Part shown: in pieces, positions 8,041 to 22,188 of the stretch
Position numbering within the stretch: the stretch's first letter is position 1
How the letters are laid out: each line of letters opens with the position of its first letter
DNA from: Pseudomonadota bacterium
GTDB taxonomy: Bacteria; Pseudomonadota; Alphaproteobacteria; RF32; CAG-239
NCBI GenBank assembly: GCA_918234285.1
Contig: CAKJXZ020000049.1
Coordinates: 1-22,193, forward strand
Direction: 5' to 3'
DNA length: 22,193 nt
Notes under the pieces: generated by a model
What the model was told of the DNA's origin: nothing
Databases searched by the model: none
What the model saw: only the letters and a program-made list of their open reading frames with translations
Program-made: the position numbers and the translations under genes

Positions 8041-8118
8041 CACACAAAAAATTACGTGTTTGTAACATTTGCATAACACAAAAAAACGATGGGGTACAGG
8101 GTGTTGAACTAATAAAAT

Positions 8119-8257
8119 GTCATACCTCGCACGATGCGGTGCATTCGTGCGTCAAGGTATCTAATCTTTGCGTAGTGCTATACTTGTTTTTGAAGCGGCT
8201 TCGCCGAGAGCCGAGTTCCCTTGACGAAGTGACGCACAGCGCACTTCGAGGGATGAC
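8119..8257. repeat. Inverted doublet of 44-nt GTCAT-tagged hairpins (REP/REPIN-like)
   Basis: Unit 8119-8162(+): GTC-ATACCT-CGCACGA-TGC-GGT-GCA-T-TCGTGCG-TCA-AGGTAT-CT. Unit 8214-8257(-): GTC-ATCCCT-CGAAGTG-CGC-TGT-GCG-T-CACTTCG-TCA-AGGGAA-CT. Same architecture, different stem sequences. Confidence 0.75.
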
Positions 8258-8265
8258 TTTGCCAC

Positions 8266-9154: not shown

Positions 9155-9865
9155 TTATTTATAGGCGTAGAGGCTTTTACCATAGCGTTTGAGCCAAATA
9201 CGGCCGCGGCTCCATTCCGGGCATAACGATGCAACACATGCCCAGAATTCGTCGGAATGATCAGGGTGCTTGAGGTGCGATACTTCGTGTGCCATCAGAT
9301 AATCAATCACAAAATCGGGCGCCAGGGCAATTCGCCAACTGTAATTGATATGTTTTAAGGAAGAGCAGCTTCCCCAACGCGAAGTAGTGTCTTTGATGCT
9401 GACACCGCTTAATTTTTGGCCGAGTTTATCTGCTAATTCTTTAGAACGTGCATAAAATTCTTCCTGTGCGCGTTTTTTGATATAATCTTTGACTCTGCGG
9501 TGAATGAATTCGGCCTCGCCGGAAACGCAGAGTTTGTTTTCCTCCGGCCAAACACCGCGCCGGGCCTCCGGATGATGCTCCACCGTGACGCTTTGTCCGA
9601 ACAGCAAAAAATCAGTGCCTGCGGCAAAATATTTTATTTCCGGAAGTTTGTTTAGAGATTTGATAATCCAATCGGTGTGTTCGGTTACAAAATTTATGGC
9701 TTGTCGGCGCGAACAAAAACGCGGCACGGAAAGCACCGGTACCCGCTCTTTTTCATCTATCTTGAGCGTGAGCTTGCGTCCCGAGCGCGATTGCACCACC
9801 TTAATATCCATACCGACGGCTTCGGCAATATCAAAGGTCTTGCCAGTCAACAATGTGATCTTCAT
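9155..9865 (-). CDS. M48/YgjP (DUF45)-like zinc-dependent hydrolase
   Basis: SRWGSCS, YSWRI, and DYLMAHEVSHLKHPDHSDEFW containing HExxH. Confidence 0.9.
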   Translation of the reverse strand: MKITLLTGKTFDIAEAVGMDIKVVQSRSGRKLTLKIDEKERVPVLSVPRFCSRRQAINFVTEHTDWIIKSLNKLPEIKYFAAGTDFLLFGQSVTVEHHPEARRGVWPEENKLCVSGEAEFIHRRVKDYIKKRAQEEFYARSKELADKLGQKLSGVSIKDTTSRWGSCSSLKHINYSWRIALAPDFVIDYLMAHEVSHLKHPDHSDEFWACVASLCPEWSRGRIWLKRYGKSLYAYK

Positions 9866-10334
9866 AGTCTTTTACCTTTGTTTCGTTGACCAATTCGCGG
9901 CCACTGAGCGAGTTTCCCGATTCCGTTACGCTGGAGGCTTTGCCGGTTATAAGCGGATGCCAATCCGGCAAGTCATGGCCGTTGTCTAAGAGCCAATAAG
10001 CGCAGGTTTTCGGCAACCAACGCGGTTTTTCGCGCACGGCTTCAAGGTTTATATCACGGCAATCAGGCACCGCTTCAAAGCGATGTTCGTAGATTTTGCA
10101 CAGACAGCTGTTACAATCCAAAAAGCGGCAATATGTATTGGTAAAGTGAATTTTACCTTTGATTTCCAGTTTGTTTAGGCAACATTTGCCGCAACCATCG
10201 CACAGAGCTTCCCATTCTGCTTTGTTCATTTCTTCGAGTTTTTTATGCTTCCAAAATTCCGGCTCAAGCTTTTTGGCTTCATCGACACGCATTTGCGGAT
10301 TATAAGCTTCGTCTATGGCGTAGTCTTTACTCAT
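9831..10334 (-). CDS. YcgN family (CxxCxxCC) cysteine-cluster protein, copy 2 (167 aa)
   Basis: EWEALCDGCGKCC, C..YEHRFEAVPDC, WLPKTCAY and LPDWHPLITG. Start moved to the ATG at 10334 (GGAGG RBS); the upstream ORF extension merely reads through the palindrome. Confidence 0.92.
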   Translation of the reverse strand: MSKDYAIDEAYNPQMRVDEAKKLEPEFWKHKKLEEMNKAEWEALCDGCGKCCLNKLEIKGKIHFTNTYCRFLDCNSCLCKIYEHRFEAVPDCRDINLEAVREKPRWLPKTCAYWLLDNGHDLPDWHPLITGKASSVTESGNSLSGRELVNETKVKDYEDHIVDWQDL

Positions 10335-10352
10335 AAATCCTCCCAAAGTCCT

Positions 10353-10459
10353 CGTCATCCTGAGGCAAAGCCGAAGGATCCAGCAACGCTGAAAGCGTTG
10401 TTTTGTCCCAGAGGACAAAATGAATTCTTCGCTTCGCTGTAGCTACGCTCAGAATGACG
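10353..10459. repeat. Inverted doublet of CGTC-tagged palindromes (107 bp)
   Basis: Termini CGTCATCCTGAG and CTCAGAATGACG form an 11/12 inverted match. Internal hairpins CAACGCT-GAA-AGCGTTG and TTTTGTCC-CAGA-GGACAAAA. Confidence 0.85.
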
Positions 10460-10474
10460 GTTAACGCCTTATCA

Positions 10475-10765
10475 CTATAATAAGCTGTCATACAAATCAT
10501 CCCAGTTTTTATTATTTTTTTCAATCAATTCAATCTTGCGCTTTCTAAGCCATCCTTTTAAGGTTTTCTCTCTCTTGATTGCCTGTGTCATATCATCAAA
10601 CATTTCATAGTAAACAAGCATCTTTACATTATACCTTTTAGTAAAACCGCTGAAAATTTCCTGCTTATGTTCATAGATGCGCCTAACTAAGTCAGAAGTA
10701 ACCCCCGTATACAGCGTTCCGTTTTTTTTACTTGCTAAAACATAAATACAGGGTTGCTTTTTCAT
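10475..10765 (-). CDS. Small stand-alone GIY-YIG nuclease (96 aa)
   Basis: CIYVLAS..NGTLYTGVTSDLVRRIYEH...FTKRYNV..LVYYE...AIKREK.LK.W.R..K..LIE..N..W.DL; AT-richer than neighbouring genes. Confidence 0.93.
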   Translation of the reverse strand: MKKQPCIYVLASKKNGTLYTGVTSDLVRRIYEHKQEIFSGFTKRYNVKMLVYYEMFDDMTQAIKREKTLKGWLRKRKIELIEKNNKNWDDLYDSLL

Positions 10766-11148
10766 AAATCCTCCCAGTCGACGATGTAATACTCCAAATC
10801 CTCGTCTTTGACATCAAGTTCGGAAACCGTACGACCTTTAAGCGGTTTAAGCGGTTGCTCTTTATAATTTTTATCGAACAGTTTGCGATAGGCGCAGGTT
10901 TTCGGCATATACGGCAATTTATCGACGTTTTCCGGTGTCAGTTTTGTGCAGTTCGGTACCAGTTCGCAACGTTTTTCGTATACACGGCAACGGCGGTTTT
11001 CCATATCGTAATATTGGCAGAGCACATTGGTGTGATACAACTTCCCGGTGTCGGCATCTTCGAGCGTCATCATACAGCACTTGCCGCAATTATCACAGAT
11101 TGCTTCCCATTCTTTTTCACTGATTTTTTGCCAATCACTTTTATCCAT
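10762..11148 (-). CDS. YcgN family (CxxCxxCC) cysteine-cluster protein, copy 1 (128 aa)
   Basis: EWEAICDNCGKCC, CRVYEKRCELVPNC, YMPKTCAYR. Start moved to MDKSDW, which overlaps the dnaB stop. Confidence 0.9.
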   Translation of the reverse strand: MDKSDWQKISEKEWEAICDNCGKCCMMTLEDADTGKLYHTNVLCQYYDMENRRCRVYEKRCELVPNCTKLTPENVDKLPYMPKTCAYRKLFDKNYKEQPLKPLKGRTVSELDVKDEDLEYYIVDWEDL

Positions 11149-12771: not shown

Positions 12772-13641
12772 TTATTCTTCTTTACCGATACCTTGATGCT
12801 TTTTCCAAGCCGCGTAGGAAGCTTTTCTTTTTTTGCTCTCTTCCTCGCGTTGCATTTTGCGCTTTTCGCGTTCACTCAATTCCGGATTAGGGGAATCTTC
12901 AAATTCTTTAGAATTCGGCAGTTTCAGCCTTACCCGACATTTTGTCTTTATAAGTTCTTCATAGGCTGACTGGTCAACCTTTGACATATCAATGGATTTT
13001 TGAAAATGTTGCAGTTCGTGCGTAGGCACCTTGAGACCTTCACCCCGATATGCCGCCAGTTTATCTTTAACCTCATTGACGCGTATAACAGTTCCTATTG
13101 CGAGAATAGAGTTAACATCGGCGTTTGCCTGAACTTCTTGTATTTTGTGTGAAATCGCTTCGCGCACCGCCATCTCCAGCTCAATCAGACGGCCGTCAAG
13201 TCGAGACGCTCCTTTTGGAGGATAATCTACAAACAAGGAATCATCACTTGCTCCGTATGTGCCGTCAGGATTTTTGCAAAAATAACTCTCAAAAGCCTCC
13301 GGATCATCGGGATCAAACGGCTGGTCCAAAAGCTGAGCATAATCCAGAACCTTGTCCTCGGATTTGGCTTTTCCCGGCAGAGTTTTGACGGTACGACGCT
13401 CATACTTCAGCAGGGGTTCTTTAGCGGACAATATTTTTAAAAAACCGGAACGGGTAATTTTTTCAACATTGCAATTATAATCAATAGTATCTTTCATCCA
13501 TGTATCAACACTCGGATAATAAGTGAACACCATTTCCTCATTTTGGGCGAGCGGCAGACGCATAACCGCCTTTTGCACACCGCCCTGTTTGTTGGTGGTC
13601 AGTTCAAATTTCGGTTCGTTATCTTCGGTTTCTTCCGCCAT
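12772..13641 (-). CDS. Hypothetical protein, paralogue B, C-terminus YAAWKKHQGIGKEE
   Basis: 289-aa ORF with AAGGA RBS; shares blocks and tail with the adjacent ORF. No family recognised. Confidence 0.85.
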   Translation of the reverse strand: MAEETEDNEPKFELTTNKQGGVQKAVMRLPLAQNEEMVFTYYPSVDTWMKDTIDYNCNVEKITRSGFLKILSAKEPLLKYERRTVKTLPGKAKSEDKVLDYAQLLDQPFDPDDPEAFESYFCKNPDGTYGASDDSLFVDYPPKGASRLDGRLIELEMAVREAISHKIQEVQANADVNSILAIGTVIRVNEVKDKLAAYRGEGLKVPTHELQHFQKSIDMSKVDQSAYEELIKTKCRVRLKLPNSKEFEDSPNPELSEREKRKMQREEESKKRKASYAAWKKHQGIGKEE

Positions 13642-13655
13642 ATCTTATTCCTTGT

Positions 13656-14444
13656 TTATTCTTCTTTACCGATGCCTTGATGTTTTTTCCAGGCCGCGTA
13701 TTGCTTGCGTCGTTCTTCCTGCTTTGCGGCGCGTTGTTGCTCTTTGGTTAAAACCGGCGTAATAATACTTTGGTCCGGTTCTACCGTCGGCATTTTTCTC
13801 ACAGCTTTATCCACCCGCTTCCATACAGCTTCGTATGATTCCTCGGCGTGGCCGGTTACCGGATACATCGGGCGTGCCGGAGTCTGCTGTATGCGCTCAG
13901 GATGTTTTACGTTTGCGATTTCTTCCGCTTTTATGGCGATTCGTTCACGGAATGCCTTGTCTAAATCCACAATAAGCCACTTGACATCGTTATCGGCTTT
14001 ATCAAGCTTGACATCAACACCATGATGCGGAGTTAGGGATAAGGATAGGGATATTTCAAAAGTTTCTTTTTTTATGTTGTTATGGTCAAACACCCGCATT
14101 TCTTTAAGTTCTTTGCTGCTGTAGTGTTTGCGGTCATAATCGCACCCGTTGCGGAAAGTATATTTCAGTATAGGCTTTTTTACACCCAGTTTACGCAAAA
14201 ATTCGCTGTCGGACAATTCATCAACCTGTACAGCATTGAAATATCTTTCTCCGTCGCCGTGATGCTCGGAATCTACCTCATATGAAAATTTGTAAAACTT
14301 ATCGTTATAATCATAATATGCTACAACCTCGGCTTTGGTAATACCGTTGTCGTTGGTGGTATATTCGATGTCCCAAACGTTCTTTGCATGCGTTACGGCT
14401 CTGGCGTGGGAACAATCTCTTTCGTATGCATCATCATTTTCCAT
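13656..14444 (-). CDS. Hypothetical protein, paralogue A, C-terminus YAAWKKHQGIGKEE
   Basis: Start moved to MENDDAY (AAGGA upstream), giving 262 aa. Homologous to the downstream ORF. Confidence 0.85.
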   Translation of the reverse strand: MENDDAYERDCSHARAVTHAKNVWDIEYTTNDNGITKAEVVAYYDYNDKFYKFSYEVDSEHHGDGERYFNAVQVDELSDSEFLRKLGVKKPILKYTFRNGCDYDRKHYSSKELKEMRVFDHNNIKKETFEISLSLSLTPHHGVDVKLDKADNDVKWLIVDLDKAFRERIAIKAEEIANVKHPERIQQTPARPMYPVTGHAEESYEAVWKRVDKAVRKMPTVEPDQSIITPVLTKEQQRAAKQEERRKQYAAWKKHQGIGKEE

Positions 14445-14537
14445 TTTCGGTTCCTTTGCTGCAGCAAACATATTATAAGCAAATGGTAGCACAGAAAAAT
14501 TAATTTGTCTATAATTTTCGGTAAAAATTAAGAAAAC

Positions 14538-14997: not shown

Positions 14998-15025
14998 GAG
15001 ATTCTTCGCGTTGCTCAGAATGACG
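14998..15025 (-). repeat. Solo CGTC-tagged palindrome between rsfS and rlmH
   Basis: Minus strand reads CGTC-ATTCT-GAG-CAACG-CGA-AGAAT-CTC; shares GCTCAGAATGACGG and ATTCTTCGC with 10424-10460. Confidence 0.8.
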
Positions 15026-21842: not shown

Positions 21843-22132
21843 CTTCCCCTCTGTCCAATAAAAAAACTCTCCGCAAGGGAGAGTCTTTTTATTGGAGCGG
21901 GCGAGGGGAAAATTTACGGCGCTACACGCCGATAAATTCGTGTGCTTGTTTTCTAAATTCGCTACGGTTGTTTTCACTTCCCTTGCTCATTAAGAAAACT
22001 GCGCCATCAGCACCAAAAACAACATTTTGAGGTTGTTTTTGGCTTGATGCCCTCTCAGGGTTCGCTTCCCCTCTGTCCAATAAAAAAACTCTCCGCAAGG
22101 GAGAGTCTTTTTATTGGAGCGGGCGAGGGGAA
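21843..22132. repeat. 68-bp perfect direct repeat (period 222 bp) containing the tRNA-Gly 3' end and terminator
   Basis: CTTCCCCTCTGTCCAATAAAAAAACTCTCCGCAAGGGAGAGTCTTTTTATTGGAGCGGGCGAGGGGAA at 21843-21910 and 22065-22132. Confidence 0.95.
22076..22118. terminator. Terminator hairpin after tRNA-Gly (duplicated at 21854-21896)
   Basis: ACTCTCC-GCAAG-GGAGAGT stem flanked by pairing A/T tracts and TCCAAT/ATTGGA. Confidence 0.8.
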
Positions 22133-22188
22133 TCGAACCCCCGTTATAAGCTTGGGAAGCTTCTATTCTACCATTGAATTACGCCCGC
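22115..22188 (-). tRNA. tRNA-Gly (anticodon CCC)
   Basis: Minus strand reads GCGGGCG-TAATTCAATGGTAGAATA-GAAGC-TTCCCAA-GCTTA-TAAC-GGGGG-TTCGATT-CCCCT-CGCCCGC-TCCA; 74 nt with encoded CCA. Confidence 0.96.

Follow-up and report, generated by a model that had tools for sequence, protein, structure and literature searches.

An Ssn-family nuclease gene with CGTC-tagged hairpins between two copies of a host gene junction: a one-ended, operon-coupled variant of a known system

Introduction

The GIY-YIG enzyme SsnA, a single-domain protein of 94 aa, binds a CGTC-tagged hairpin when this is single-stranded DNA (ssDNA) but not otherwise, and its cut falls upstream of the hairpin (Chenal et al. 2025, PMC11893778). 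According to the main text of that paper, double-stranded DNA (dsDNA) is left uncut, and no joining activity is reported there. Mobility enters its Discussion as a hypothesis only, in the form of IS-like hairpin-ssn-hairpin units, and the words “duplication” and “empty” do not occur in its main text. Palindromes of the CGTC-tagged REP superfamily are found as singlets, doublets, and arrays adjoining genes, as are the hairpins described below, and are said in the main text of the report on them to have no dedicated transposase (Di Nocera et al. 2013, PMC3733652). In REPIN/RAYT systems, the moving unit is likewise a gene-less inverted doublet that forms a long hairpin and depends on one nuclease acting in trans (Bertels and Rainey 2011, PMC3116915); there the enzyme is an HUH tyrosine transposase and the tags are GTAG, whereas here they are a GIY-YIG nuclease and CGTC. 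We found no target-site duplication wording in the main text of that paper. REPIN/RAYT is a functional analogue of the Ssn-hairpin system.

Other comparisons are with mobile elements that share part of this behavior. GIY-YIG chemistry is hydrolytic, without a covalent intermediate, and free-standing GIY-YIG homing endonucleases rely on an extra DNA-binding domain to cut dsDNA of the empty allele. Ssn proteins have the same fold, and with them, too, one host site is reoccupied with short cotransferred flanks; in contrast, they lack the extra DNA-binding domain and recognize the hairpin of the filled allele. Classical insertion sequences have filled and empty alleles among relatives, as we report here, but they also have a transposase and a fixed target-site duplication, neither of which we found.

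Here, we describe a locus that resembles SsnA and its NTS/SRM hairpins (cd10448; PMC11893778) in pairing a ~95-aa single-domain GIY-YIG protein with CGTC-tagged hairpins, both beside the gene and dispersed in the genome. A preliminary description of the locus had treated this pairing as unknown; it is already the published Ssn/SRM system. The locus differs from the system in the main text of that paper in that its hairpins (CTGA...GAAG) fall outside the published SRM pattern, its unit lacks an upstream hairpin, and its gene is joined to the host operon through a stop/start overlap. We also found filled and empty alleles, lateral transfer, and duplicated junctions, whereas an IS-like element is only hypothesized there. 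In the open-access literature (subscription journals were outside the scope), we found no reports of Ssn insertion alleles. The enzyme-hairpin pair is already published; the locus is a genuine variant of that known system, one-ended and coupled to an operon, and the mechanism that we set out for it is a proposal.

Results

Layout of the locus

The window is a 22,193-nt stretch of an alphaproteobacterial genome (G000; 2,005,265 bp). On the minus strand, the genes run in the order dnaB, ycgN-1, a 96-aa GIY-YIG gene (ssn), a structured spacer, ycgN-2, and a gene for a YgjP-like peptidase. The GIY-YIG gene and an inverted pair of CGTC-tagged hairpins sit between two 15-bp copies of a stop/RBS/ATG junction. 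The features are as follows.

10762 to 11148, minus strand: ycgN-1, host gene (128 aa, CxxCxxCC family; PF03692 and PRK05170 models); the upstream junction copy makes up its final 15 bp
10762 to 10776, minus strand: upstream junction copy (end of ycgN-1, RBS, and ATGA overlap starting ssn); present as a single copy in empty relatives
10475 to 10765, minus strand: ssn gene (96-aa single-domain GIY-YIG nuclease by homology, Y8/Y19/E66 intact, 33% GC)
10422 to 10459, minus strand: gene-proximal CGTC-tagged hairpin of the doublet
10382 to 10421, no strand assigned: doublet spacer with two small stem-loops in the DNA fold
10353 to 10381, plus strand: outer CGTC-tagged hairpin, where the element ends on the right; Ssn is predicted to cut the plus strand ~4 nt 5′ of the CGTC tag
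10346 to 10352, minus strand: 7-nt linker between the hairpin tag and the downstream duplicate
10331 to 10345, minus strand: downstream junction copy (RBS and ATG of ycgN-2)
9831 to 10334, minus strand: ycgN-2, host gene (167 aa; PRK05170 models above cutoff)
14999 to 15025, minus strand: solo hairpin, also of this family, located between rsfS and rlmH; a purine-rich stretch and an ATG come after it

The 15-mer TGGGAGGATTTATGA occurs on the minus strand at 10776-10762 and at 10345-10331, 431 bp apart, with no third copy anywhere in the 2,005,265-bp genome; the chance expectation of such a repeat within 500 nt is 6e-7. At 10776-10762 it codes for the W-E-D-L-stop end of ycgN-1 and overlaps the ATG of the GIY-YIG gene. 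The coding, RBS, and start-codon roles given to the two copies in the preliminary description were borne out. Its reading of the insertion as nondisruptive also held, with translational coupling preserved. The nuclease gene is indeed AT-richer than its surroundings (18/60 GC at 10501-10560; 33% GC over the gene versus 44 to 49% in neighbor genes).

As had been quoted, an 11-mer at 10796-10806, inside ycgN-1, recurs at 10346-10356, with 10/11 matches. Pairs with no more than one mismatch turned up in 4 of 20,000 random 60-nt genome windows, and the match in other filled copies is 7 to 8 of 11 (by eye). The evidence on whether the downstream copy is a 45-bp duplicate minus 19 bp points both ways: chance would rarely produce the 11-mer, and another site has duplications of 43 bp, but four of the bases are the hairpin tag and other filled copies match less well.

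In contigs from two further studies, both junctions are spanned (X3 for each, X4 for the left one, and X6 for the right one); the cassette is therefore not an assembly artifact. What had been called a palindrome consists of two CGTC-tagged hairpins in a 107-nt inverted doublet (10353-10459), with 11 of 13 terminal bases complementary and a DNA fold at z = -4.8 versus 200 shuffles. An Rfam scan of 10200-10900 gave a sole match, at chance level and below its gathering score.

The nuclease and its hairpins

PF01541 (residues 5 to 77; E, 3.9e-18) is the sole Pfam family in the 96-aa protein. Domain profile searches of the cassette returned GIY-YIG only and no DDE, HUH, or recombinase-type transposase. 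The protein aligns with a 94-aa ORF of N. gonorrhoeae over 89 aa at 58% identity (93% coverage; E, 6e-30); this ORF has Y6/Y17/E64 and sits among 7 NTS copies. With this ORF standing in for N. meningitidis SsnA, the alignment lies inside the homology threshold of E < 1e-10 over >75% of the length; at 58%, it falls narrowly short of the stricter 60% identity used by Chenal et al. Residues Y8, Y19, and E66 (Y6, Y17, and E64 of SsnA) are invariant in 10/10 aligned homologues. The 58% identity therefore settles the family: the protein is securely placed in the Ssn family (cd10448/SsnA), and by analogy it would act as an ssDNA nuclease. The ssn gene is under purifying selection (dN, 0.03, and dS, 0.62, between the window and G007). 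A PDB search yielded two distant UPF0213 proteins only and no Ssn structure.

The predicted cut at the outer hairpin, ~4 nt 5′ of its CGTC, is deduced from the SsnA NTS75 oligonucleotide and its 20-nt product in the main text of PMC11893778. Base 10423, just past the gene-proximal stem, is T in the window and C in the other filled copies and in three sequencing runs; a C after the hairpin stem is described as most important for SsnA binding (PMC11893778, main text).

Hairpins of the window subtype, with a CTGA...GAAG stem, number 29 in the window's genome, versus 1, 0, and 0 in three Markov controls. The published degenerate SRM pattern has 6 matches in the genome, none of them at the window locus (controls, 1, 6, and 4), and picks up 7 copies at the Neisseria locus. 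This mismatch concerns search convenience rather than a mechanistic criterion. CTGA/GAAG hairpins follow the ssn clade of the window: there are 24, 17, 12, 48, 17, 22, and 2 in the 7 carrier genomes of the closest ssn clade and zero in 33 of the 43 genus genomes outside those carriers. G001, which is empty at ycgN, has kept 7 hairpins and has no ssn match.

The solo hairpin at 14999-15025 is present in G000 and G001 and absent in G054, G007, G009, and G046. Its layout, a left hairpin and RBS fused to a downstream ATG, is the mirror image of the ycgN cassette and recurs as a remnant at sufB in G043; by this likeness, it is probably the left-end scar of a former element. In G046, a 429-codon ORF (L302) fills the rsfS-rlmH junction in the place of the solo hairpin.

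Several other features of the window are recorded here. Two genes at 12772-13641 and 13656-14492, with no Pfam match, have a common 48-bp 3′ end (94% identical) and a similar C terminus; the pair is present in G001 and was not found in the rlmH loci of G054, G007, G009, and G046. An exact 68-bp direct repeat (21843-21910 and 22065-22132) includes a terminator and the 3′ end of tRNA-Gly (22115-22188). At 8118-8258, between porin-like and DegT-like genes, lies a gene-less hairpin doublet of another subtype (ATCCCTC stem, as around the second ssn of the genome, on C67). The same intergenic region in G045 holds a hairpin-flanked ssn of another clade on the opposite strand (L346).

Complete units and their derivatives

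Homologues of ssn occur in 26 of 50 genus genomes. We examined 44 listed genus loci; the 42 with enough flank form 31 upstream-flank clusters, an upper-leaning count because flank clustering may split orthologous sites of distant genomes. The variable gene neighborhoods anticipated for this subfamily were thus found, with that reservation on the number. The wider survey took in metagenomes and named genomes in addition to the genus and covered 176 unique loci. A hairpin lies within 300 nt of the gene at 163 of the 176, in agreement with the earlier proposal that the gene travels with CGTC hairpins, and an inverted hairpin pair surrounds the gene at 107/176 (control windows, 16/188). As judged from these loci, the complete unit is hairpin-ssn-inverted hairpin, typically of 350 to 500 bp. 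The cassette had been taken for a minimal complete element, but complete units carry a second hairpin upstream; this left hairpin is missing both in the window copy and in the second ssn gene of the genome.

The second ssn gene (C67 23400-25279; L360) is 58% identical to that of the window and lies directly behind a gene that we take to be YbaK-like. Hairpin arrays lie on both sides of the pair, and the arrangement recurs in G054 (L361); the pair could be a cargo-carrying unit or two independent arrays.

In G061, two ssn units (L040 and L059) occupy different sites 4.3 kb apart and are 98% identical (9/561). Their comparison suggests movement guided by flank similarity. Each adjoins a similar terminator, and they have linkers of 24 to 28 nt in common, well past the predicted cut. 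For an empty-site comparison of the G061 copy, the relatives, at 73 to 76%, are too diverged for placing the junction. Many unrelated complete units, at L097, L112, L120, L121, L132, L135, L141, L156, L163, L233, and others have a similar upstream flank and no duplication; the flank is presumably the 3′ end of truA, another recurrent site.

Filled and empty alleles at ycgN

Both ycgN genes are present in 43 of 50 genus genomes, of which 4 are filled (G000, G007, G009, and G045) and 39 are empty as judged by spacing. The empty ATGA junction that the preliminary description proposed to look for in relatives does exist, and we read it directly in sequence in 28 cases. In a dnaB tree of 21 selected genomes, the filled G000 is sister to the empty G001 (100/98), and the empty G054 falls within the clade of the filled G007 and G009.

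Mismatches between G007 and G009 number 5/415 in the cassette, 59/372 in ycgN-1, 45/496 in ycgN-2, and 90/1465 in dnaB (cassette versus dnaB, Fisher p = 1e-5, which is overstated because kin are not independent). The near-identical tract in G009 runs from ~10824 to 10306, that is, the cassette with ~60 bp of flank on the left and ~40 bp on the right. Set against the 6 to 16% divergence of the flanking genes, the 5/415 figure demonstrates, by allele comparison, that the cassette moved laterally between species into the same site with short flanks. The ycgN region is mosaic irrespective of the cassette (for G007/G054, ycgN-2 dS, 0.11, versus dnaB dS, 0.96), so ordinary recombination could carry it. 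The ssn gene of G009 has a 1-bp frameshift; the recently transferred copy may therefore be inactive. G045, also filled at ycgN, encodes a protein with 72% identity, and all that is left of its downstream repeat is an RBS and ATG.

Contigs of four runs, an assembly product that drops rare variants, contained neither the 431-bp skip of an empty joint nor the back-joint of a circle. In run X5, the flanks were covered and the cassette was uncovered, but at a depth of ~4 to 5x this carries no weight. The two closest loci among named genomes are in MAGs of uncultured proteobacterial/alphaproteobacterial organisms, one of them from rumen.

Junction duplications at other sites

Host-junction duplications occur at three further sites in the genus: the sufB stop, the 3′ end of a membrane-protein gene, and a terminator. 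At sufB, 3 of 48 genomes have complete units with 22- to 24-bp copies of their own junction and one (G043) has the solo-hairpin remnant; the four carriers belong to four different clades that also include empty relatives. The downstream copy of G002 matches the native sufB end of its empty sister G016, and the upstream copy differs. At the membrane-protein gene, complete units have duplications of ~37 to 43 bp and gene-less doublets have duplications of 17 and 26 bp; tandem arrays are found in two genomes, and empty alleles are present. Tandem junction-unit-junction arrays are those of L347, L348, and L036. At the terminator site, which we assume to follow a DegT-like gene, G045 has a gene-less doublet with a 29-bp duplication, and 5/5 relatives are empty. 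Linkers between tag and duplicate measure 4 to 11 nt, compatible with a cut at -4 in this small sample. In 6/6 informative rows, the downstream copy is nearest to the upstream copy of its own genome; the duplications were therefore regenerated or homogenized per lineage.

Flanking direct repeats scoring at least 10 were found at 8 of 104 two-sided units versus 4 of 282 shifted controls (45-nt windows); four of the 8 are genus host-junction copies, and four are pieces of hairpin arrays. Outside the genus, none of 92 two-sided units has a host-junction duplication. The expectation that homologues would show junction duplications thus holds at three other genus sites and fails beyond the genus, and in the loci sampled the duplications look restricted to it. 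Gene-less doublets at polymorphic sites, as in REPIN/RAYT, are present here: among 35 gene-less doublets and arrays, 6 have a flanking repeat (control, 0/136), one of these six having been compared with empty sites (empty in 5/5 relatives).

Three candidate explanations were rejected. A fixed-length target-site duplication does not fit repeats that range from 15 to 43 bp, lie off the ends by 4- to 11-nt linkers, and are absent in most units. The CGTC target preference of the preliminary description was abandoned: there is no CGTC at the duplication boundary of the sufB, membrane-gene, or terminator site, and CGTC/GACG lies near only 7/44 of the empty sufB ends. For concerted evolution between the ycgN copies, an 18-nt comparison carried too little information, and the pattern failed on G052.

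Discussion

We propose that the nuclease supplies ends, that host recombination or repair joins them through short junction homology, and that recombination between the repeats restores the empty site. We put the probability of this reading at roughly 55%. The cassette would be a left-end-deleted copy of a small mobile unit, hairpin-ssn-inverted hairpin, that spreads without a transposase. The window protein would cut its own hairpins, as SsnA does, whenever the DNA is single stranded, be it during uptake, during replication, or upon extrusion of the 107-nt doublet. Host recombination or repair could then join the freed ends through short stretches of sequence that they share with the host junction. 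Such homology-guided joining would yield uneven repeat lengths, reuse of sites, and tandem arrays, and recombination between the repeats would yield an empty junction again. In the ycgN copy, the left hairpin would have been lost in a deletion reaching from the duplicated ATG to that of ssn; the same event would have coupled ssn with the dnaB-ycgN operon. With the left hairpin deleted, the window copy can therefore probably only return to the ycgN site, and its nuclease may act in trans on the ~29 genomic hairpins.

A rather unlikely alternative, yet the strongest, is that Ssn is a domesticated passenger: a host factor for ssDNA restriction or a modulator of recombination, as in Neisseria, with no part in movement. 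The cassette would have arrived once by illegitimate recombination, would since have been gained and lost by homologous recombination and slippage, and would have kept its duplication for the translation of ycgN-2. A host role is the only Ssn function in the main text of PMC11893778, and it would suit a gene under purifying selection that is coupled to a host operon. The ycgN region is mosaic anyway, most units outside the genus lack duplications, and filled copies have inherited the same 7-nt linker instead of each making a new one. A single passive arrival is harder to reconcile with four unrelated genus sites that have duplications 4 to 11 nt outside the tags, one of them a noncoding terminator, with the 31 upstream-flank clusters (upper-leaning) among 42 genus loci, or with a transferred tract centered on the cassette.

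The model of the preliminary description, a transposase-like GIY-YIG protein that targets CGTC and makes a true target-site duplication, now appears quite improbable. Terminal inverted hairpins around a single gene at 107/176 loci, lineage-specific duplications, and the 10/11 match running through the CGTC tag at the ycgN locus (4/20,000 by chance) are what it would predict. The duplications, however, vary from 15 to 43 bp and are mostly absent, the other three boundaries have no CGTC, and hydrolytic GIY-YIG chemistry offers no covalent intermediate. In the main text of PMC11893778, moreover, SsnA leaves dsDNA uncut and no joining activity is reported.

Very improbable is a circle freed by repeat recombination with one junction copy and reintegrated by a host or phage recombinase, Ssn being cargo or a stimulator of excision: the tandem arrays of L347, L348, and L036 and the G002 downstream copy that matches G016 (its upstream copy differing) would fit, but the four sites have no shared core, contigs of four runs hold no back-joint, and the G009 tract reaches past the repeats on both sides.

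End supply by the nuclease with joining by the host remains our preferred reading. A further step, which we regard as possible but offer tentatively, is that Ssn-hairpin units in general are transposase-free mobile elements, in which a 96-aa hydrolytic ssDNA nuclease nicks close outside its terminal hairpins and leaves 3′ ends that bear a short copy of the earlier host junction and prime integration at junctions that match it. If that were true, Ssn would be the missing mobilizer of the CGTC-tagged REPs, and the units would form an insertion system of very small size, programmable through its flanks and able to rebuild stop/RBS/start signals and terminators.

Two published gaps meet at this locus: CGTC palindromes without a transposase (PMC3733652, main text) and IS-like Ssn units that are merely hypothesized (PMC11893778, main text). 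The genus offers filled alleles with empty counterparts, units that are complete, one-ended, or gene-less, and a short tract of lateral transfer; together these define donor, target, and predicted cut sites. The comparative evidence for movement is good, and it supports the published but so far unproven idea of the Ssn family as a mobile unit.
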